Sequence record: NC_103192.1
DNA length: 64,000 nucleotides
Strand: one strand, 5' to 3'
From: a phage
Shown: piece after piece, positions 1,363 to 14,987 of the stretch
How positions within the stretch are numbered: the stretch's first letter is position 1
Layout: every line of letters starts with the position of its first letter
The notes under the pieces: model-generated
What the model saw: the letters and a program-made list of their open reading frames with translations, nothing else
The model's database searches: none
What the model was told of the DNA's origin: nothing
Position numbers and translations under genes: made by a program

Positions 1363-2049
1363 ATGGCAGAGATTAAGTCGGATGTTAACCACATCCACAC
1401 TCTGCCAGATTTTGTTCAGGGGGGTCTTGATTACCTCCCTGGGGATTTTCTGGCTGAGAAGGTTAATTTAGTCACATTCTTAACCGTATACCTTAAAAGG
1501 TTGGAGAATGTTGATAAAATGCTGGTAGGCTTGGCTGAAGGAAGATTGCTTAACAATGCCAGCGGGAGATACCTTGACGAAGTTGGTAATCAACTTGGTA
1601 TTCTTAGGAATGGTCTTTCAGACGCGGATTTTCGTGCTACGCTGATTATTCAGCAGGCAGCATCATCAAGAGGTGGTACTCGCGAAGATGTCATCTCCAC
1701 CTTGCGACAATTGTTCGGAAGAGACAATTTCGATACGTGGAAAGGTGACAACTTTAGATTTGACATAAATATTAGAAAAACTTGCTTCGACATATTACAG
1801 TCCATCGATCAGATCTTAGATATGCTGCCATTGCCTTGTCATTTGCGTCTTACAGAATCGCAAGGGCAAGCTTTTGGTTTTGAAGGAGACTCTACAGCTC
1901 TTGGCTTCGGATCAGTGTGGGAAGAAAACCAGTTCGGAGTTGGTGGGCTGGCTACTTTGCTGTATGTTCCTGACGTAAGACCTGATTGGGACACCACAAC
2001 TATTTATTGTGAAAGTATTACAGTAAACGCAACTAGACAGGAGGGTTAA
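1363..2049 (+). CDS. virion structural protein (baseplate/tail module)
   Basis: 228-aa ORF tightly packed between structural ORFs; no diagnostic motif. Confidence 0.5.
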   Translation: MAEIKSDVNHIHTLPDFVQGGLDYLPGDFLAEKVNLVTFLTVYLKRLENVDKMLVGLAEGRLLNNASGRYLDEVGNQLGILRNGLSDADFRATLIIQQAASSRGGTREDVISTLRQLFGRDNFDTWKGDNFRFDINIRKTCFDILQSIDQILDMLPLPCHLRLTESQGQAFGFEGDSTALGFGSVWEENQFGVGGLATLLYVPDVRPDWDTTTIYCESITVNATRQEG

Positions 2050-4121
2050 TGGCAACAGCTGTTTTTAAACCTTACCGTGATTACTCTACGATGGCTGCAC
2101 GGTTTCATTACCGCACAGTTCAGGATACTGCAGTTCCAGGTAGGGATTATGATCATGTTGAGGGAGATGTAACTATCCCGGTTGGAGCAACCAGTATTGA
2201 GATCCCTGTAGAAATTGTTGACAAATTGCCAAACAGGTTGCCAAGAAGCTTCTTTATGGAGTTTTCATCAAACTCCCAAGGGGTTATGATTGGAACACAA
2301 AGAGCGAAATGTACAATAGTTTCAGATGAGAATCTTGACAGAATATCTTGGGATACCGTTGAGGAGAGAATGTTTCACCCAAGATATTGGGTTACAACCA
2401 CACAGCAGACTGAAAGCACCTGCATTGTTGCGGATAATAACTGCTGTATTAACCGTTTAGTGTCAAGAACATATGGAGGCATGGCTGGGTGCATTTGGGA
2501 AACAGTTGACAAGTATGACCATTTCGGCATTGGATTTGATGATCACTACGAGATGAGAAACACCAAGCTTTGGTTCAGAATGTCAATAACCAATGCCAGC
2601 AACTTCTCCACCCCTGAAAAGATGATTATGACTGTAGACCTTGTTGACGGCACAATCATCTATGTTCCTTTAGCTCAATATGCTGTCAGCATCTCAGAGG
2701 ATAAGAATGTTGCAGAAATTCATATTGATTTCGAGGACTGCGTCGGGATGGACCAGAACAACAATATGATGGGTGTTGATCCTCGGCAGGTGAGAAAGAT
2801 TTTAATACCGCTTATGCCTAAAGATTGGGTAAGTAATAGCACAGACCCAAGAACGGAAAATGTAGAGTGCGAGTTGCGTCTAGATCTGCTTCAGCCGGAC
2901 ACAGGCTGGAAAATGATGCAACTTAACAATATCCAGGTGAAAGAGCACGACGTCGGGATCTGCACAGCATATGACGATATGTGGAACGTATCCCCTTTAA
3001 GGGTGTTGAGCAATATCAAGCGTCTGGGCTATACCGGAACCATAAATCATTATGTTGGTATGAGTCATTATTATGACTACACATGGTCAGGAACCCAATG
3101 GTCTATAAACAAAACAGGGGCTCTAAACGCTGCAGCTTATAAATGGCATGATGATTTTATGTACAATGCCAAACGACATGACTTCGACGTTATGCAGTCT
3201 GTAAGCTTCGAGCTTTATAGCGATGCCTGTCCGTTGGAATGGACCCAGAGAGACTGGAACGATAACTACGCTAAAACAGGATATACACCTTGTAGCTACC
3301 TCCTGTCTCCAACCATTGAAGAGGGTATGAATTTCCTTACTGCAGTATTTAAGAATTTTGCATCAGCCGCTATGAGAAACAACCTGCCAGTGATTATGCA
3401 GGTTGGTGAACCGTGGTGGTGGTACAATACCGATACTCGTAGACCTTGTATTTATGATTACCCTACAAAGCAGGCGTTTTATGATGAGACAGGTGAGTAT
3501 GCATTAGATATTGGGACTATTGACGATCCTAAAACTGGTGGTGTTTACGACAAGTATGTAGCATTTTGTCGTGGTAAGCTTGGCGCTCGTATTGCGGCTA
3601 TTTCAAAGGCAATAAAAGCACACGCTGCATCGGCTCAGATGACAGCTTTACTGTTTTTCCCCACTATTATGGAAACCGAGCTTACGCAAAAACTGAACCT
3701 TGCTGACCAATATAAAAAGGAAGCAGGCGCTCTTGATTTCTTCTGCACTGAGTGCTACGATTGGGTGATGCAGGGAGGTATTGAAAAGGCAAAAGAGTCT
3801 GTAAACATACCTATCGTTAAGTTAGGTTGGAAACCGTCTGAAATACAATACCTTGCAGGGTTCGTTCCTAGCAAAGAGCTTGCTCCGGTATATGGCTACG
3901 ACCCAACCAGGAATTACCAAGAATTTTTATGGAGATGTATTTGCGGAAACATGGCAACCATAGAGTATAGATACCCTGAGGTAAAACAGTATGTGTGGGC
4001 ATACCCGCAAGTAATGTCTGACAGCATCACTGTTACCGCCAGAGATTCTACCGTGCTTCATATGGGACAGGTTGCTCTGAAAGGGTATGTAGAAGATGTT
4101 GTCCCGCCAGACTTCTCATAA
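2049..4121 (+). CDS. virion structural protein, tail/baseplate associated
   Basis: 690-aa ORF, start overlaps previous stop (ATGA-type coupling), directly upstream of tail fiber gene. Confidence 0.6.
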   Translation: MATAVFKPYRDYSTMAARFHYRTVQDTAVPGRDYDHVEGDVTIPVGATSIEIPVEIVDKLPNRLPRSFFMEFSSNSQGVMIGTQRAKCTIVSDENLDRISWDTVEERMFHPRYWVTTTQQTESTCIVADNNCCINRLVSRTYGGMAGCIWETVDKYDHFGIGFDDHYEMRNTKLWFRMSITNASNFSTPEKMIMTVDLVDGTIIYVPLAQYAVSISEDKNVAEIHIDFEDCVGMDQNNNMMGVDPRQVRKILIPLMPKDWVSNSTDPRTENVECELRLDLLQPDTGWKMMQLNNIQVKEHDVGICTAYDDMWNVSPLRVLSNIKRLGYTGTINHYVGMSHYYDYTWSGTQWSINKTGALNAAAYKWHDDFMYNAKRHDFDVMQSVSFELYSDACPLEWTQRDWNDNYAKTGYTPCSYLLSPTIEEGMNFLTAVFKNFASAAMRNNLPVIMQVGEPWWWYNTDTRRPCIYDYPTKQAFYDETGEYALDIGTIDDPKTGGVYDKYVAFCRGKLGARIAAISKAIKAHAASAQMTALLFFPTIMETELTQKLNLADQYKKEAGALDFFCTECYDWVMQGGIEKAKESVNIPIVKLGWKPSEIQYLAGFVPSKELAPVYGYDPTRNYQEFLWRCICGNMATIEYRYPEVKQYVWAYPQVMSDSITVTARDSTVLHMGQVALKGYVEDVVPPDFS

Positions 4122-7517: not shown

Positions 7518-9263
7518 ATGGCGCAAGACATGACAAGCTTCGAGCAGGCGGTAGATCAAGTAATTGTTGATTCTGAACGTTTGCACTTGATTGTCAACGG
7601 TAACGCTGTGGATGAAGTTGTCGTAGAGGATGGGACCACTATCCCTACGGTACGAAAAGCCATGCTTGACACCCTTTATTTTAAAACGCCGCCGATCCCT
7701 TGGGCGTATGGTGCATCCACAACAGTTTTTAACCAGTTGTATGAGTTTAAAGGAGATACGGGCACTCAGTGGTGGTACGCCCCAGCAGCATCAAAATCTA
7801 ACCCAGTTAGGATGCCAGCAGATCCTTCAGAATCTCCGAACTGGAGATTATATACCGATTCTGCAGTAATGGCAAAATACTACGCAAAACTTAACAGTCC
7901 AAGGTTCGAAGGTGACCCGAGAGTACCTACACCTCCAATGGACGATAAGTCCGAGTCTATAGCAAACACAGAGTTTGTTGTTGACTATGTGGATAGTATA
8001 TTCAAAGCCATGGAGGGGATGAAAGTAACTGTAGGGTCTTTGGTGGTAAAAGGTCTTACAGAACTTGCTAACACCATAGTTGGTGGCACCCTTACCTTGC
8101 ACGGGCCTGTTAATGGAGCGGATTCTACTGCACGCTTCAGGAACCTAATCCTTACTGCAAATACTTCTACATTGACTTTTGCGTGGAGCGATCCTAAGCA
8201 TGCAGACTGGAGAAGCACAGAGCTGCAACCTCATGAAGTATCCACCCACAGAGTTATAGCTGACACTATAACTTCTGGGAAACCAGTGGCTAATAACAAC
8301 GATGTGCATTTTGATGGTCTAGGTAATAACTTTTTTGACTACGTGTACATTCGTGGTAATGCCATGAAGGCAGCCACCGAACCGACATTGCAGGTTGATG
8401 GGACCACTAGGGTTAAGAACCTTGAGGTGACAGGCACCGTTACAGGGATAACCTACTCTGTAGATGGCACCATGATCTACCCTAGCTATATTGAAAGCAC
8501 GGGAGATGCACTGATCAATGGAGATTTAGAGGTTGGCGGGTCTGTAGTCATTCGTGGCACAGCATCTGTCCAGAACATATCTTTAAATACTCTGAGGGTG
8601 AATGAGCGTGCCACTTTTGAAGGAGAGGGGCTTACAGCCAACAAAGGTGTAATTACCGAGCTGACAACCACCACTCTAACTGCAACAACTGCAAACTCTG
8701 AAAACTGCAACGTTACCAGAAACTTGCAGGTAAATGGAGATGTTAGTTTAAACACAGCAGGGACGGGCACTACCCACCTTCACAACCTTGAAATATCAGG
8801 TACAGTGACTGGGTGGCTGCCAGACTTCTCTAATGTCAACTTTGTCTGTAATGGCATTAACTCCAGTGGCAAGATAACCACCTCTCAAGAAATTGAAGCT
8901 GGTAAAACTATTACTGCCCCTGCTTTCCATGCAGGGAAGGTGGAGTTTGACTTAGAGGAGGCTGACGCATCTAGTGGGACATGGACACCTAACGGGCAGG
9001 CCAATATGTATGTTGTCCACGCGAAAGGGGATTTTACAATAGGGCAATGGCCTGGAACATCGGCTGAAGATAAACCTTACCCGTTCACTGCAATCATCTA
9101 TGTCATTCAGGATGCTGTAGGCCACAACGTGACCTTACACGATAAATATGCCATACTGTCGGCTACTCCTGTTATTAACAACAAAGCCAACAGTGTCACC
9201 TTGCTACAATTGACATATTGTGGTGTTGGTGATATTGTGGATGTGGTTATTGCACAACGTTAA
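7518..9263 (+). CDS. tail fiber / tailspike-like protein
   Basis: 581 aa, repetitive T/G/N/V-rich segments (e.g. NLEVTGTVTG, NLEISGTVTG) typical of fibrous beta-structure proteins. Confidence 0.65.
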   Translation: MAQDMTSFEQAVDQVIVDSERLHLIVNGNAVDEVVVEDGTTIPTVRKAMLDTLYFKTPPIPWAYGASTTVFNQLYEFKGDTGTQWWYAPAASKSNPVRMPADPSESPNWRLYTDSAVMAKYYAKLNSPRFEGDPRVPTPPMDDKSESIANTEFVVDYVDSIFKAMEGMKVTVGSLVVKGLTELANTIVGGTLTLHGPVNGADSTARFRNLILTANTSTLTFAWSDPKHADWRSTELQPHEVSTHRVIADTITSGKPVANNNDVHFDGLGNNFFDYVYIRGNAMKAATEPTLQVDGTTRVKNLEVTGTVTGITYSVDGTMIYPSYIESTGDALINGDLEVGGSVVIRGTASVQNISLNTLRVNERATFEGEGLTANKGVITELTTTTLTATTANSENCNVTRNLQVNGDVSLNTAGTGTTHLHNLEISGTVTGWLPDFSNVNFVCNGINSSGKITTSQEIEAGKTITAPAFHAGKVEFDLEEADASSGTWTPNGQANMYVVHAKGDFTIGQWPGTSAEDKPYPFTAIIYVIQDAVGHNVTLHDKYAILSATPVINNKANSVTLLQLTYCGVGDIVDVVIAQR

Positions 9264-9270
9264 TATATCT

Positions 9271-9297
9271 GACCGCTCCTGACGGGGCGGTTTTCTT
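9271..9297 (+). terminator. stem-loop plus T-run (partial terminator/attenuator)
   Basis: accgctcctgacggggcggt followed by ttttctt right after the stop of 7518-9263. Confidence 0.5.
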
Positions 9298-9311
9298 ATC
9301 TGGAGAACACA

Positions 9312-12300
9312 ATGCTTCCAATCCCTTTGCTAAAACTTGGTCGTCATTTCCTCGATAAGAGGGGTGGAGTTAAGGAACTTGCTGTTCTGTCATACCCAAT
9401 AGACAACAGTGACGGTACAAGCACTACAGTAGCTTATGTAAATAGCTTAGCTATACTTTTTGACGACGGTCAGCTTAATATTACTGGCTATAACAAGTTC
9501 GGGGAGTGTCGCACTGGGGATCGTAACCCTATAAACTACCCGAGCGAGACGGCCTGGAATGTTGATCATGTGTGGAGAGCAGACCGTGCGTTTGTGATCC
9601 GGACTTTTGATAACCAGTTTTTCTACATCGGTTGCACTGCAGGTCTTATCGGATCCACTGCGGCAGGTGGTAACGATGTTTGCGTAAACGAGTGGACACC
9701 TCTTCCGGAACAGATTGTTCAAGGATTGCACCTTGACACCCACCCAGAGCGCCTTATCGAGGTAATGGGTGGTATTAACAACACTGTTTGGGTTATGGCA
9801 GAGGCTGAGGGTGACGGCATTTTACACCTGTACGGGTCTGGTAACAACACCTACGGATCTTTACATGTAGATAAGAACCAGCATGCAACTCCTGTAAAGA
9901 TTGGTGAAACATCAGAAAATCCTGAAACAGGCCCTTGGAAAAACCCAAGTATCAACTGCGAGGTGCATGACAACTCTGTTATTTTCGGTGGGCCTAGAGG
10001 TTTTTGGATTGCTGGATACGACTTTCTGAGAAACAACAGTAGAAACGACCTTGTTTGGCCCCCTGCTCAGATTACTCGCAACGATTTGAAAGGCATTCCT
10101 GCAGATGAGGAGTGGAAAGGATTCATGTGTGGTCCGAACGGGGCAGTGGTTGCAACACAAAGAATGCACAGACCTGATGACCAACAACTTGTTAACGTAT
10201 TTTATGGTCAAAACGTTTGGGGGGATGATACCTGGCGTGCTTTGAATATAACCTACACCCATGAGGTGATAATGGCTCGTGGGTACGGCACAAGTGGCAT
10301 TTTCTTCAACAATGGTACTAAGCAGTATCGTGGCTTCTCTCGAAACCTGTGCAACGATATTGGCGCACAATCTGCAAACAATAACCCCCGTGCCGATTTT
10401 GTTCATTACCAGGCCCTTGCTACGGCTAAATACGTTGAGCAACGCCTCCCAGTTAGCTGGACAGAGAGTGTTTATTTCCAAGGCATTCACAGAGAAGGTT
10501 TCTTAGGGACCTTTACTGTTGTTAATGGTAAACTTTGGTGGTCAGGCATCCCAAGGGGAAGTTTTGCAGGTTCTAATAACCTGTTTGGTGGCAGACTTAA
10601 TAGTCAAGGGTTCACAGAGGTTCCTGAGAATTGGTATAAAAATGTCCCAGTAGATAGTTGGGGTGTTGATGATATTTTTGACGTTAACGGTGTTAGCAGC
10701 GTTAGCAATATCTACATTGGTGACACGGTAAAGATGAAATTGAAGCCTCAGCCAGAGGGAGCTACGTTCATTATTGACAAGATTGAACTGGTAAATGCTG
10801 CAGGTACGGTTGTTACAGATGCAAATTACCAATTCTCCACCAACTGGAACCACGGCGGGGCCAACGAAGTTGTTGTTACTCAGTATAACAGGAATGTGAA
10901 CAGACGTGGCCTGTACTCTGTAAAAATAACCTATCATGACAAGCATGGCACAGGCAGAACGCACACGACAAGGAACTTGAACTGGAACACCATAGTTCCT
11001 GCGTATCCTTCTGACGGTAAGTGGCATACTGTCGGTAGAAACAAACAGTTCCATGTTAATGACACTGTATACTTCGGGCTGAATGGGACTCAGCCTGCGG
11101 TAGAAGGAGATACATCGTATATGGTCCGACTCCACAGAATGGATGGTGGATCAGTCACTTATGATGTTACCCAAGAGATTTATGATCAGAGACGAAATAC
11201 CTACAACAACTTAGTGCAGACACAGGCCGTATGGGAGTTCAACCCTAACGGCAGAGGTGGTAAAATGTTGCAGGTTAACGAGCAAAACGGAACGTCGTTG
11301 ACTGTCCACGAACACCCAGACCCTTGGCCTGATCCTGGAAAACCTCACCCAGGTGCTCGTACACTGAAAATTGTCAGCCATGATGCAGGATATTTCGGAA
11401 TACGCTGGGAAGCCACAGTAAGATATGCCGACGGGACAACAAACAACATAGGGATTACACTTGGGGGCACCAGTGAGGATAACTCACTGAAAATTGCCTA
11501 CACCCCTAGAGGCATCTCTATTGACAATATGGATGTTGTTCGCAACGGTTACGGAGATGTGAACATCAAAGTTACTCTTGGTGAACATCTTGGCGGGGAA
11601 AGGATCATCATGTACGCCTTTGATCACGACCCACGCACTGACGGAACCTATGCAGACCAAGCGTGGAGCTACCTGATAAGCGCACCTGAGCCAAATACCA
11701 AAGAATTCTACTACGGTATGAAACGGGATGTGTGCAAGAAAACAGGGACACATGACTGGATTGCAATCTGCGTTAAAGATGAACGTACCGCTTGGGACGA
11801 GCCTGTTAACAGATGGTTCATAGGAATTCCCACTCGAAGTGATAAATACGTTGAAGAATATATTGTATGCATGGGCGGCACCAACCTCAACATGTGTTGG
11901 AACGAGGATGCAAACAAATACTCTGATTACGATTATATGAGGGATTACTCTTGCAATCAATGGTTTAACCAAACCGGGTATGCTAATCGACAGTCAAGAG
12001 TAAACCCTGCAATCTTTACAGATACGCAGGTTTTCTTGACAAAACAGGCCAACGAGGTTCAGACCTTCAAGAACAAATACGACCCTAACAAGTGGTTTTA
12101 TAACTGTTATGGCGCATTTTTCTGGGGGCCAGGGGAACTGCCTAACGGGGGATCTTGCTTCGAGGCTGCAACTTACGCCAGTGACAGGTTCATGGGGCAG
12201 GTTAAGAAGTACAAGATAATCCCCGGGCCTGAAACTTTAGGCAACGCTGTTGACCCATATATCATCATGACAGCACTAAGATCGAACATGGACGGAACAT

Positions 12301-14945
12301 CCCTATCTATGCAAGTTCCAGTAACAAACGGGTACAAACGTGTTGTGATGATCATTAAGTGCGACTTAATAGGTAAGCAAGTTCTTGCAGAAAACGGAAC
12401 CTCAACACATCTATTCGAGACTGCTCTGCATTATCAGTTTGCTGATTCACCTTTTGCAGGGGATAAGAGAATATCTGATACAGACAATACTCGATGCAAG
12501 AAATTTATGCTTGGTGGTGGATGGTGGTGGTATGAATTTGATTTAACAGACAAATTCACTGACACGTCTAAAGTGGTGACAGGGCTTCGTCTAGATCTTG
12601 GCGAAAACATGCACAAAAGTGTTTGTGATGGCACCTACGGTGACCCAACAATCTACTTAAAGTATGTCTCTTTTGAGCATCCGGAAGATGTTGTTTACGG
12701 TCCAAAACTGAGATTGTTTGGCAGTTGGATTGCAAAAGACAGGGTAGGCATGGGTAAAAAGGTAAGAGGGTTCTTGGTTGATGCAGGAACAGAAGACATG
12801 CTGGTTAATGCAGTGTGGCCTGAATTACCTGGGACTCAGTGGGATAACTCAGCCAAGTCCATAAACTGGTTCAACATTCACAGAGCTATGTGGACAACTA
12901 ACTGCTACCTGTGGAAAGAGTTGAATGACGGCGCTTTCGGGTTTACAGGTGGCAGAAGAATGGCAATCATTTGCTGGACAACGCTGCAAAGATGTTATGA
13001 CCATGACTACGAGATTGGGGGTAGGGCATGGAAAAATATTAGGGATAGAATCATAACTAACTTCGCAGACCCTAATGGTGGTGGAGCGTATGGCTTCGAC
13101 TGCAGCAGGCTCATCCATTTGAACGGGTCCTCTGCATATAAGAAAGAGGGTTACTCTGGATCTATGATTGAGTGGGGCCTGGTGAAAGATGCTCGCGTAT
13201 TGATGGGTCAACAACTTGCTGCTGCAATAGGACCTAACGCAGTGCAGTCTGTTAAACCAGCGTGGTTCGATATCCCAATATGGTCATCTGGAACACCAGG
13301 AACTGCGGCAATCAACCCTACCACTGGGGATCTGGAAATCTCTTGGGAGGACTTGAAGCAGGTTGGTGGCTGGGATAAGACAGGCTACCAGGTACAATGG
13401 TGGAGATCTGACGGATCGTTAGCGGCTGATGAGTTTGTTAAGGACAATTTCTACACTATGTCCTCTGCAAAAGCACAGCAATTGTTTGGTCAGGCAACTC
13501 CGTCAACGATCACCATGTCCATGTGCTGTAAAGACAACAGGACTGGAGCCTTGGGACCGAGGGTTGCTAAAGTTTTCTCAGGTATTAAATGGAATCTCCC
13601 TGTTCAAAGTGTTTCATGGAAGCAAATAGGTGATAACAAGCTGCTGGTTACTCCTGCCTGTCAGTTCAACGCAACTCTTAACGTTGATCCTGCTGTTGCG
13701 GCAAACTCAGCTAAAGCTTCTGACTTCTCTGTGTCTAACACTGCTATGGCAGATGTGAGGAAGATTGACACACTGAACGCCAGAATTACCTGTAAAAACA
13801 CTTATGGCACATTCCAGATCATCAACAACTTCACAGATGCTGATTCTAAGGTAGTGAGGACAGCAAGCCAGACTATGCAGTTGGGCACTCTGGCATACTC
13901 TGCCCGGATCACTGAACAATCTCCTACTCTTCAGGGTGGGGGTGTTGGTAAGTTGATCACAACACCTGTGTGGAAGCCAAATGAGTGGGTTGTGTTTGAT
14001 TTGACTGTAGACTTCTCCAGTGACAATAACTGGACATGGGTAAGGAATTGCTTGTCACAGTTGATGGGTGGTCCAAGCTCTGTTAGTGATAGCCACGACT
14101 CTACTGACCCCAGCGTGTTCCAGGTTGGTAAAACTCACCCAGAGACGGGAGCAACGTTGCCTGACAGGAAGTATGCTTTGGTTTGCATCTCTTACGGAAA
14201 AGCAGATGTCACCTTCTCAGGGACGCACACTTATAACGGAACTTACAACTTCTCAAGGAAGTATAGTCTCAAGGCAGGTAACATTATAGATGAAGTTGGT
14301 GCGTTGTATAACCCAGGTAACGGCATAGGGATTGTGGGTGGTAAACTGCAGATGCAGGAACCTTCTATTACCCCTTCCAATGTGTCTGGGATTAGAAAGA
14401 CTTGGGAAAGCAGTAATACCAACATTGCAACAGTGGATGCCACCACAGGACTGGTAACATTTAAAGCTACTGGGAATGTCACCATAAAGTTTGTAGTTAC
14501 TGATGATGCAGGGCGCAAAACGTCTTCAACATCTTTTACTGTCAAACAGATGGCACCACAGTGGAGAATGTGGATAGGTACAGCAACAAACGGGGCATAC
14601 CCTAATCCGGCAGGTACTTCTGGTATGAAGACTTTCTCTACAAGCAAACCGATGGAGTACGGCAGCGGTCCTAAGGTAGGGCAGATGGTGTACTTTGGTG
14701 CGTATATTCCTGAAATTATAGGGCTTCCGAGAAGTCAGCTTCAGTTGCTGTTTGGGGCTGGTGTTGACGATCTTGCCACTTTCGGGTATAGCGACAACAT
14801 CGAGGCTGCAAGGAGTTCAGGATGGGTAGGGTTCAGAATGGAGTCTGGAAAGGAAGGCAGGATTCTAGGGACAGCCTCTATAGGTGTTATGTTCCCTGGT
14901 GACCAGCAGTATCGTCTGGGAGCCTACGCGACTTTCTCTCTTTAA
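9312..14945 (+). CDS. giant virion protein (putative long fiber/adhesin) with Ig-like Big_2 domain
   Basis: 1877-aa uninterrupted ORF; Big_2-like segment WESSNTNIATVDATTGLVTFKATGNVTIKFVVTDDAG near C-terminus; last gene of structural block. Confidence 0.75.
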   Translation: MLPIPLLKLGRHFLDKRGGVKELAVLSYPIDNSDGTSTTVAYVNSLAILFDDGQLNITGYNKFGECRTGDRNPINYPSETAWNVDHVWRADRAFVIRTFDNQFFYIGCTAGLIGSTAAGGNDVCVNEWTPLPEQIVQGLHLDTHPERLIEVMGGINNTVWVMAEAEGDGILHLYGSGNNTYGSLHVDKNQHATPVKIGETSENPETGPWKNPSINCEVHDNSVIFGGPRGFWIAGYDFLRNNSRNDLVWPPAQITRNDLKGIPADEEWKGFMCGPNGAVVATQRMHRPDDQQLVNVFYGQNVWGDDTWRALNITYTHEVIMARGYGTSGIFFNNGTKQYRGFSRNLCNDIGAQSANNNPRADFVHYQALATAKYVEQRLPVSWTESVYFQGIHREGFLGTFTVVNGKLWWSGIPRGSFAGSNNLFGGRLNSQGFTEVPENWYKNVPVDSWGVDDIFDVNGVSSVSNIYIGDTVKMKLKPQPEGATFIIDKIELVNAAGTVVTDANYQFSTNWNHGGANEVVVTQYNRNVNRRGLYSVKITYHDKHGTGRTHTTRNLNWNTIVPAYPSDGKWHTVGRNKQFHVNDTVYFGLNGTQPAVEGDTSYMVRLHRMDGGSVTYDVTQEIYDQRRNTYNNLVQTQAVWEFNPNGRGGKMLQVNEQNGTSLTVHEHPDPWPDPGKPHPGARTLKIVSHDAGYFGIRWEATVRYADGTTNNIGITLGGTSEDNSLKIAYTPRGISIDNMDVVRNGYGDVNIKVTLGEHLGGERIIMYAFDHDPRTDGTYADQAWSYLISAPEPNTKEFYYGMKRDVCKKTGTHDWIAICVKDERTAWDEPVNRWFIGIPTRSDKYVEEYIVCMGGTNLNMCWNEDANKYSDYDYMRDYSCNQWFNQTGYANRQSRVNPAIFTDTQVFLTKQANEVQTFKNKYDPNKWFYNCYGAFFWGPGELPNGGSCFEAATYASDRFMGQVKKYKIIPGPETLGNAVDPYIIMTALRSNMDGTSLSMQVPVTNGYKRVVMIIKCDLIGKQVLAENGTSTHLFETALHYQFADSPFAGDKRISDTDNTRCKKFMLGGGWWWYEFDLTDKFTDTSKVVTGLRLDLGENMHKSVCDGTYGDPTIYLKYVSFEHPEDVVYGPKLRLFGSWIAKDRVGMGKKVRGFLVDAGTEDMLVNAVWPELPGTQWDNSAKSINWFNIHRAMWTTNCYLWKELNDGAFGFTGGRRMAIICWTTLQRCYDHDYEIGGRAWKNIRDRIITNFADPNGGGAYGFDCSRLIHLNGSSAYKKEGYSGSMIEWGLVKDARVLMGQQLAAAIGPNAVQSVKPAWFDIPIWSSGTPGTAAINPTTGDLEISWEDLKQVGGWDKTGYQVQWWRSDGSLAADEFVKDNFYTMSSAKAQQLFGQATPSTITMSMCCKDNRTGALGPRVAKVFSGIKWNLPVQSVSWKQIGDNKLLVTPACQFNATLNVDPAVAANSAKASDFSVSNTAMADVRKIDTLNARITCKNTYGTFQIINNFTDADSKVVRTASQTMQLGTLAYSARITEQSPTLQGGGVGKLITTPVWKPNEWVVFDLTVDFSSDNNWTWVRNCLSQLMGGPSSVSDSHDSTDPSVFQVGKTHPETGATLPDRKYALVCISYGKADVTFSGTHTYNGTYNFSRKYSLKAGNIIDEVGALYNPGNGIGIVGGKLQMQEPSITPSNVSGIRKTWESSNTNIATVDATTGLVTFKATGNVTIKFVVTDDAGRKTSSTSFTVKQMAPQWRMWIGTATNGAYPNPAGTSGMKTFSTSKPMEYGSGPKVGQMVYFGAYIPEIIGLPRSQLQLLFGAGVDDLATFGYSDNIEAARSSGWVGFRMESGKEGRILGTASIGVMFPGDQQYRLGAYATFSL

Positions 14946-14957
14946 CAAGGGGTAAAT

Positions 14958-14987
14958 AAAAAGGGGCCAAACGGCCCCTTTCTTTTT
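14958..14987. terminator. bidirectional intrinsic terminator
   Basis: aaaaaggggccaaacggcccctttcttttt: GC stem flanked by A-run and T-run between convergent gene blocks. Confidence 0.7.

Follow-up and report, generated by a model that had tools for sequence, protein, structure and literature searches.

A 208-kDa Ig-like protein closing the tail-fibre cluster of rV5-like phages: a candidate accessory virion adhesin

Described systems and how the giant protein compares

Surface-exposed immunoglobulin (Ig)-like domains, such as those of T4 Hoc and N4 gp65 and the one at the C-terminus of lambda gpV, are non-essential in the laboratory and have been proposed to make weak contacts with carbohydrates; Fraser and colleagues are said to have reviewed the Ig-like accessory domains of phages in 2006. 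Here we discuss a protein of 1877 aa from a 64,000-nt stretch of phage DNA (sequence record NC_103192.1, the whole of which is referred to as the window), whose gene occupies positions 9312..14945 of the plus strand. In comparison with the three systems just named, this protein is of a much greater size (208 kDa), its gene belongs to the tail-fibre cluster and it carries what appears to be an N-terminal RCC1-like propeller as well as a 480-aa orphan domain; overall, it looks like a very long, sticky and dispensable arm in which a propeller is combined with some ten Ig-like beads and a single orphan domain. Our preferred reading, for which we consider the scales to be about level, is that it is a monomeric, flexible and non-essential accessory adhesin, present in low copy number on the virion and organized as beads on a string rather than as a trimeric fibre. 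In this reading, the presence of the protein in the virion and its position there, its monomeric state, its anchoring by the N-terminus and its binding to glycans are what we infer from the evidence reviewed below.

The closest described proteins are direct orthologues of the same length and at the same genome position, namely rV5 gp27 (1878 aa, 208 kDa, labelled 'conserved hypothetical protein, Big_2'), LL12 gp26 ('hypothetical protein') and the BASEL proteins bas49_0041 and bas54_0041 (both 'lateral tail fiber protein with intimin domain'), the orthology of bas54_0041 having been specifically confirmed. Another label given to the protein in databases is Ig-like domain protein. There is essentially no difference between these proteins and that of the window, which is another allele.

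As regards architecture, intimin, FdeC, LigB and S-layer proteins with Big domains share with the giant protein the presence of tandem Ig-like/Big_2 arrays, which in their case end in a distal binding module. However, the giant protein has neither the LysM nor the β-barrel membrane anchor of intimin/invasin, and no C-type-lectin-like D3 domain is detectable in it. Its matches to intimin in the PDB are confined to one Ig domain, and the NCBIfam model intimin_all, whose cutoff is 1400 bits, gives 24.9 bits over residues 1695-1733 only, with no full-length match to the family. The 'intimin' label is thus explained by the match of a single Ig domain, and the giant protein at best works like an intimin-type adhesin, without being a member of that family.

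The head spike fibre of RcGTA (Rcc01080, PDB 6TB9) provides a conceptual model, in which one flexible adhesin is fastened by a short peptide at its N-terminus, since it binds the capsule and is attached to the particle via its N-terminal ~10 residues only, without being strictly required. A homologous domain (E=4e-14) was found in the distal part of JR319_gp042, a shorter relative of the giant protein from Phapecoctavirus. That domain is not in the giant protein, whose own PDB search did not return 6TB9. Because a profile of the N-terminal motif shared by these relatives (M-x-P-I-P, see below) matches neither the RcGTA fibre nor any other PDB chain, the RcGTA fibre is an analogy for the mechanism and not evidence for it.

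Conservation and domain architecture

The gene is an uninterrupted open reading frame (ORF) of 1877 codons starting with ATG. It is matched by 120 phage records, 107 of which extend over 80% or more of its length with a nucleotide identity of 80-97%, the best match being Escherichia phage B9-1 (97.3%). These records correspond to rV5-like myoviruses of the genus Vequintavirus, including entries named 'Campylobacter phage' that group there by sequence. At the protein level, phrog_15684, a family with no assigned function, is matched over its full length (4442 bits, residues 1-1876 against profile positions 1-1877 of 1878). All nine orthologues examined, each from an independent genome, are intact (1875-1878 aa, 90-99% amino-acid identity), with a pooled dN/dS of 0.07 at a pS of 0.35 (Nei-Gojobori). 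In the same nine sequences, each domain is under constraint, with a dN/dS of 0.02-0.11 or, for the C-terminal tip, of 0.205. Since so many records cover most of the gene and the nine independent orthologues are intact, the ORF is a genuine gene, which has already been catalogued. The single giant ORF closing the structural block, as given in a preliminary description of the window, is therefore upheld, and the sequencing or assembly artefact that this description had named as a possible objection is dismissed. The selective constraint indicates that the gene is clearly functional.

Remoter full-length relatives are found in metagenome assemblies (41-73% identity, 1711-1976 aa). Two remote relatives, of 1711 and 1716 aa and from contigs of 130-142 kb, already stop where residue ~1640 would be in the window protein, with neither the Big_2 domain nor the tip; in some lineages, the C-terminal module thus seems, from these sequences, to be an optional part or to be encoded separately. 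A precomputed Pfam annotation (PF26918.1) is present on a close orthologue and on several short members of the Seunavirus type.

The N-terminal ~440 residues are predicted to consist of a short peptide followed by an RCC1-like β-propeller. The peptide (aa 1-19, 9312..9368, plus strand as for all the domains described here) starts with MLPIPLL and displays no substitution at all among the nine orthologues, synonymous ones included. Its M-x-P-I-P motif, which is found once in the window and is invariant in the family of shorter relatives described below, makes it a candidate docking peptide. The propeller (aa ~20-440, 9369..10631) is the most conserved part of the protein between genera, and its assignment comes from homology to relatives that pass the RCC1 threshold. 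On the giant protein itself, PF25390 (WD40_RLD) remains below threshold (22.7 bits, E=7.4e-5, residues 44-199, cutoff 150), as does RCC1_2 (13.3 bits, cutoff 22). Residues 17-198 and 393-438, however, align collinearly with residues 20-186 and 360-403 of JR319_gp042, and this protein (24.3 bits) together with PVP-SE1 gp40 (36.1 bits) and GAP31_232 (32.7 bits) all score above the PF00415 (RCC1) cutoff of 21.7 bits. These three proteins also match RPGR, UVR8 and HERC2 in the PDB, as well as PHROG families annotated as 'regulator of chromosome condensation', one of which, phrog_4219, is matched by JR319_gp042 at E=1.7e-33. About seven repeats of the G-x-N-x-x-G type can be counted by eye in the propeller and comparison of the N-terminal profile with itself detected a single weak internal repeat (E=0.73), so that the count of seven blades rests on the motifs seen by eye. 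A stretch of ~40 residues within the propeller (aa ~241-280, nt ~10032-10151) is missing from the Phapecoctavirus and Seunavirus homologues; it is the most variable internal segment in the genus (23.5% mean pairwise amino-acid difference) and, judging from this pattern, may be an exposed loop under diversifying pressure.

The first ~200 aa of the giant protein match shorter 'tail proteins' at 30-40% identity, which outlines a positional family occupying what we call the last slot. Its members include JR319_gp042 from Phapecoctavirus (891 aa), PVP-SE1 gp40 and GAP31_232 from Seunavirus (604 and 567 aa, respectively) and phi92 gp152 (202 aa), the first three being encoded in the identical position, by the final gene of the tail-fibre cluster just ahead of a strand switch. 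The M-x-P-I-P start and Big_2 are present in every member, a G-I-x-I-V-G..Q motif standing ahead of Big_2; the RCC1-like propeller is absent from phi92 gp152 only, and the distal parts differ. What distinguishes the giant protein from the shorter ones is a different tip and the presence of ~1,230 additional residues in the interval from the propeller to Big_2. As the slot, the N-terminal peptide and Big_2 are common to all these proteins, and the propeller to all bar phi92 gp152, we read the giant protein as a probable expanded member of the family, in which these ~1,230 residues would have been inserted. Identity between genera decreases from 70-85% at the N-terminus to 10-45% in the distal part, a gradient that fits what is typical of virion-anchored binders; the dN/dS of the tip, the highest of any domain within the genus, is in keeping with it.

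The phi92 region that contains gp152 (13321-14983) has an unusual organization. The gp152 gene is followed by a 166-nt gap and then by gp153 (295 aa), annotated as having 'no RBS, weak prodigal statistics' (RBS, ribosome-binding site), in which PF03629, the sialate O-acetylesterase family, is weakly matched (E=0.008) and the sequence WGQGEND is found. The pair could be a decayed, frameshifted or recoded fusion supplying an esterase module, the capsules of the host being polysialic acid.

Beyond the propeller, the domain layout relies largely on two AlphaFold models, each computed from an alignment of 16 sequences. Three Ig-like β-sandwich domains are predicted in aa ~441-850 (10632..11861), where the model segments 454-564, 579-730 and 737-840 are all-β with a predicted local distance difference test (pLDDT) score mostly of 70-86, and where Pfam gives no match. 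They are followed by the orphan central region of 480 aa (aa 851-1331, 11862..13304), in which two helix-rich and Trp/Cys-rich parts (851-949 and 1123-1331) flank another β-sandwich (aa ~950-1122, 12159..12677; an all-β model covering residues 100-272 of the modelled fragment, pLDDT 60-85). On the basis of its model, this sandwich is possibly a jelly-roll or a module resembling carbohydrate-binding modules. Next come a putative FN3-like domain (aa ~1332-1430, 13305..13601), seen in the AlphaFold model and weakly matched by fn3 when fragments were re-scanned at permissive E-values, and two further predicted Ig-like/β-sandwich domains (aa ~1431-1665, 13602..14306; pLDDT 51-88). The first of these two (residues ~1441-1520) is the segment most diverged with respect to relatives outside Vequintavirus, with a break in the alignment and 12-40% identity. 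The Big_2 domain (aa ~1666-1755, 14307..14576; pLDDT 77-93), which had already been noticed near the C-terminus by inspection of the translation, is corroborated by PF02368 (33.5 bits against a cutoff of 22.8, residues 1681-1732) and is preceded by a GIGIVGG..Q motif (residue 1671) that it has in common with the Big_2 domain of the shorter slot proteins. The C-terminal tip domain (aa 1756-1877, 14577..14942) is the most variable domain in the genus and is a candidate ligand-contact site.

In fold searches, these arrays of Ig-like, FN3-like and Big_2 domains matched NUP210, cadherins, S-layer proteins, LigB, intimin, FdeC, the Ig domain of lambda gpV, Hoc-like proteins, N4 gp65 and also capsid proteins with Ig insertions; the three fold searches of the C-terminal model were swamped by such generic matches and did not isolate the 950-1122 sandwich and the tip. 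Together with the propeller found by profile tools, the Ig-like and FN3-like domains modelled through most of the remainder revise the earlier view that nothing apart from Big_2 could be recognized by eye in this protein.

The central region is well conserved (dN/dS 0.05-0.08), and a large number of its W, C, E and D residues are invariant. When a profile built from seven sequences and spanning residues 841-1335 was compared with the PDB, no match appeared at E-values up to 10; the same profile, run exhaustively with HMMER against 1.84 billion representative proteins, recovered only members or fragments of its own family. In Pfam, NCBIfam and PHROGs, residues 851-1331 gave only weak chance-level hits (E at least 0.1) in addition to their own PHROG. 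Full-length searches of Pfam, NCBIfam and PDB sequences yielded Big_2/intimin-Ig matches only, and the matches in PHROGs were the protein's own family, phrog_215, phrog_11922 (a tail protein family, over residues 38-197) and, weakly, two families of Ig domains. When fragments were re-scanned at permissive E-values, a weak RCC1-like match and the weak fn3 match mentioned above were added, but no enzyme. Hence, searches of Pfam, NCBIfam, PHROGs and PDB sequences, as well as fold searches, gave no sign of a glycoside hydrolase, lyase, esterase, β-helix or intramolecular chaperone domain, residues 851-949 and 1123-1331 being without a usable model, and neither coiled coil nor triple β-helix is visible in the AlphaFold models, which are of monomers. 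Of the two activities suggested in the preliminary description, carbohydrate binding therefore stays plausible, while the depolymerase finds no signature in these searches, with the proviso that residues 851-1331 are excepted.

Function, virion association and competing explanations

In the mechanism that we favour, the conserved N-terminal end (the M-x-P-I-P peptide plus the putatively seven-bladed propeller) would hold the protein on the particle and ~1,400 residues would project from it, comprising, in this order, three Ig-like domains, the central domain, the FN3-like domain, two Ig-like domains and Big_2. The variable tip, and possibly the central domain too, would make weak and probably glycan-directed contacts with cell-surface or environmental polysaccharides, through which the phage would adsorb faster to certain hosts or in certain habitats. 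The committed steps would be performed by the conserved short tail fibres and the other fibres, with no need for the giant protein on K-12.

The functional data available concern the Bas54 orthologue. HIDEN-SEQ has revealed that bas54_0041 tolerates disruptive insertions in E. coli K-12 (10.1101/2025.11.20.689424), which means that the protein is dispensable both for infection of K-12 and for infective virions to form. This tolerance, together with the conservation of the gene across the genus, makes it doubtful that the protein determines host specificity, as had been suggested from the sequence. Association with the virion is supported indirectly, by the gene context, the Ig-like architecture and the finding that RCC1-like proteins of phrog_4219 are confirmed and abundant virion components of the related phage W70, with 141-233 spectra (PMC11370258). 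Table S6 of the same study lists a 'PVP-SE1_gp040' as structural, the numbering being offset and ambiguous (PMC11370258). Low copy number fits with both the terminator-like hairpin upstream of the gene and the near-absence of the protein from the mass spectrometry (MS) data on rV5.

There is, nevertheless, a series of observations that weigh against this reading. In the total-virion MS table of rV5 (Additional file 5), gp27 appears with three peptides, nine spectra and 3.1% coverage, but these peptides are non- or semi-tryptic, with XCorr values of 2.65-3.2 and Sp ranks of 1, 9 and 14. The same list also holds the non-structural rIIA (gp1 and gp228), with two or three low-quality, non-tryptic peptides each, and the authors did not mark gp27 as MS-supported. 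We have rejected this record as support for gp27 in the virion, the peptide table being of false-positive quality, and since it is the only such record the designation 'virion protein' used previously was too strong. Cryo-electron microscopy (cryo-EM) of Bas49 and Bas54 showed no more than three fibres close to the baseplate, although nine proteins bear a fibre annotation, and the giant protein was not assigned (PMC12143355). Because phi92 gp152 (start MYPIPLF, two Big_2 domains) keeps the N-terminal peptide without the propeller, the latter may not be the anchor, and the failure of the N-terminal motif to match any PDB chain has been mentioned above. Structural predictions are also poor in places: the mean pLDDT of the two models is 51 and 55, that of residues 1-440 is below 50, which makes the model of the propeller unreliable, and the helical parts of 851-1331 are at ~25, their model being equally unreliable. 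Finally, 851-1331 is the sole part of the protein where an unrecognized enzyme or binding fold could sit.

As a separate observation, the rV5 paper describes major bands of 288 and 174 kDa in sodium dodecyl sulphate-polyacrylamide gel electrophoresis (SDS-PAGE), neither of which was linked to a protein; gp27, at 208 kDa, is the sole product above 140 kDa in the rV5 gene table for genes 1-88.

How else could such a protein be explained? RCC1 propellers and strings of Ig domains are normally monomeric, which counts against a classical trimeric lateral tail fibre (LTF) or tailspike with a polysaccharide depolymerase setting the host range, an explanation that we consider unlikely. It would accord with the location of the gene in the tail-fibre cluster, with the LTF annotation and with neighbours that encode glycan-active fibres (the N4 gp65-like TIM-barrel protein and the 581-aa fibre with a phi92-type colanidase N-terminus), and an enzyme could hide in 851-1331, with its many invariant acidic and aromatic residues. 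However, neither sequence nor fold searches gave a signature of a glycoside hydrolase, polysaccharide lyase, carbohydrate esterase or β-helix, and the models are devoid of coiled coil, triple β-helix and intramolecular chaperone. It is also true that some lateral fibre genes of Bas54, not named in the text, are conditionally essential in clinical isolates (10.1101/2025.11.20.689424), but the giant gene is dispensable on K-12, is highly conserved across the genus rather than allelic, and its orthologue gp26 was left out of the tail fibres by the LL12 authors. A fibre or decoration mounted on the head or neck, comparable to Hoc or to the RcGTA head spike and tethering the particle to capsule or mucus instead of being part of the baseplate, is in our opinion improbable as well. 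The match of the C-terminal 285 aa to phrog_215 ('structural protein with Ig domain', head and packaging category) would speak for it, as would the structural matches to Hoc-like proteins and to capsid proteins with Ig insertions and the lack of baseplate density assigned to the giant protein. PHROG categories, however, come from annotation, and the gene has its place outside the head module, as the last of the tail-fibre cluster. The RcGTA head-spike-fibre-like domain carried by the Phapecoctavirus relative, which would also speak for this explanation, is in a distal domain that the giant protein lacks, and the N-terminal motif finds no counterpart in the PDB, the RcGTA fibre included.

It is very unlikely, in our estimation, that the protein is not part of the virion at all and is either secreted late or released by lysis, or is a largely dispensable hitch-hiker, and works outside the particle, for example as a decoy, by attaching to host debris or through interaction with biofilm. 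This would account for the MS record of rV5, which is of false-positive quality and was not accepted by its authors, for the terminator-like hairpins that flank the gene and for its dispensability in making infective virions. Yet a 5.6-kb ORF under strong purifying selection in more than 100 genomes argues for a real role in fitness, no signal peptide is seen in the sequence, and the gene follows the fibre genes on the same strand, with an RBS and tight spacing. In addition, relatives are annotated as 'tail protein' (by annotation only) and RCC1-like proteins are genuine parts of the W70 virion. A bolder variant of the accessory-adhesin reading links two ideas, and we would regard the pair as a long shot: 851-1331 would be a new glycan-active or glycan-binding fold, and M-x-P-I-P a hitherto undescribed plug-in docking signal, enabling rV5-, phAPEC8-, PVP-SE1- and phi92-like myoviruses to fit a single virion socket, distinct from the network of trimeric fibres, with monomeric adhesins that can be exchanged for one another.

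Genomic setting and significance

The giant gene closes the tail-fibre cluster, on the same strand and directly after the fibre/baseplate genes, and is the final plus-strand gene ahead of a strand switch, the genes that follow being on the minus strand; GC skew reverses past ~15 kb in the window. It is separated from the upstream gene, which encodes the 581-aa fibre, by a terminator-like hairpin (9271..9292, plus strand) with a 9-bp stem, six GC pairs and a T-rich tail, and an RBS (GGAG, 9302..9305, plus strand) lies 7 nt 5' of the ATG, an equivalent RBS being annotated in LL12. The upstream hairpin could restrict read-through and hold the expression of the giant gene low. A second terminator-like hairpin (14960..14981, plus strand) ends the plus-strand structural block, at a position equivalent to one for which terminators are annotated on both strands in the rV5 record.

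The genes upstream in the window encode a Baseplate_J protein, an N4 gp65-like TIM-barrel protein, two short tail fibres, a tail-fibre assembly protein and the 581-aa fibre. The TIM-barrel protein (690 aa, 2049-4121, rV5 gp34) strongly matches two domains of gp65, the non-contractile tail sheath protein of phage N4 (TIM-barrel PF23845, 9.8e-80; N-terminal PF23844, 3.6e-12), and also carries a Calx-beta domain, in line with the BASEL proposal of an ECA-directed deacetylase fibre that is shared with N4. The 581-aa protein (7518-9263, rV5 gp28/LL12 gp27) is a mosaic fibre, residues 5-112 of which match the N-terminus of the phi92 gp150-type colanidase (5.8e-25) and residues 458-580 the C-terminus of the phi92 gp151-type fibre (2.1e-30). 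The resemblance of 'gp27' to the N-terminus of phi92 gp150 reported in the LL12 paper was considered for the giant protein and rejected, since LL12 gp27 is this upstream 581-aa gene and the orthologue of the giant gene is gp26. In Vequintavirinae, the fibre locus is mostly highly conserved and the assignment of genes to fibres is unclear (BASEL, PMC8594841), and a recent structure of phi92 also has one fibre without a gene assignment (PMC13450770).

The RCC1-like propeller, the invariant peptide of a positional family, the model of expansion and the orphan centre are refinements that we did not find in the literature searched, and we consider them as incremental leads. They concern phages that matter in practice, since rV5-like phages rank with the coliphages isolated most often and go into cocktails for therapy and biocontrol, and their 'Swiss-army-knife' set of fibres has been only partly matched to genes. 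Considering the giant protein as an accessory and probably monomeric adhesin guards against modelling it erroneously as a trimer and directs structural work to residues 851-1331. Were M-x-P-I-P to be a genuine attachment signal, it would be usable for grafting new binding modules.

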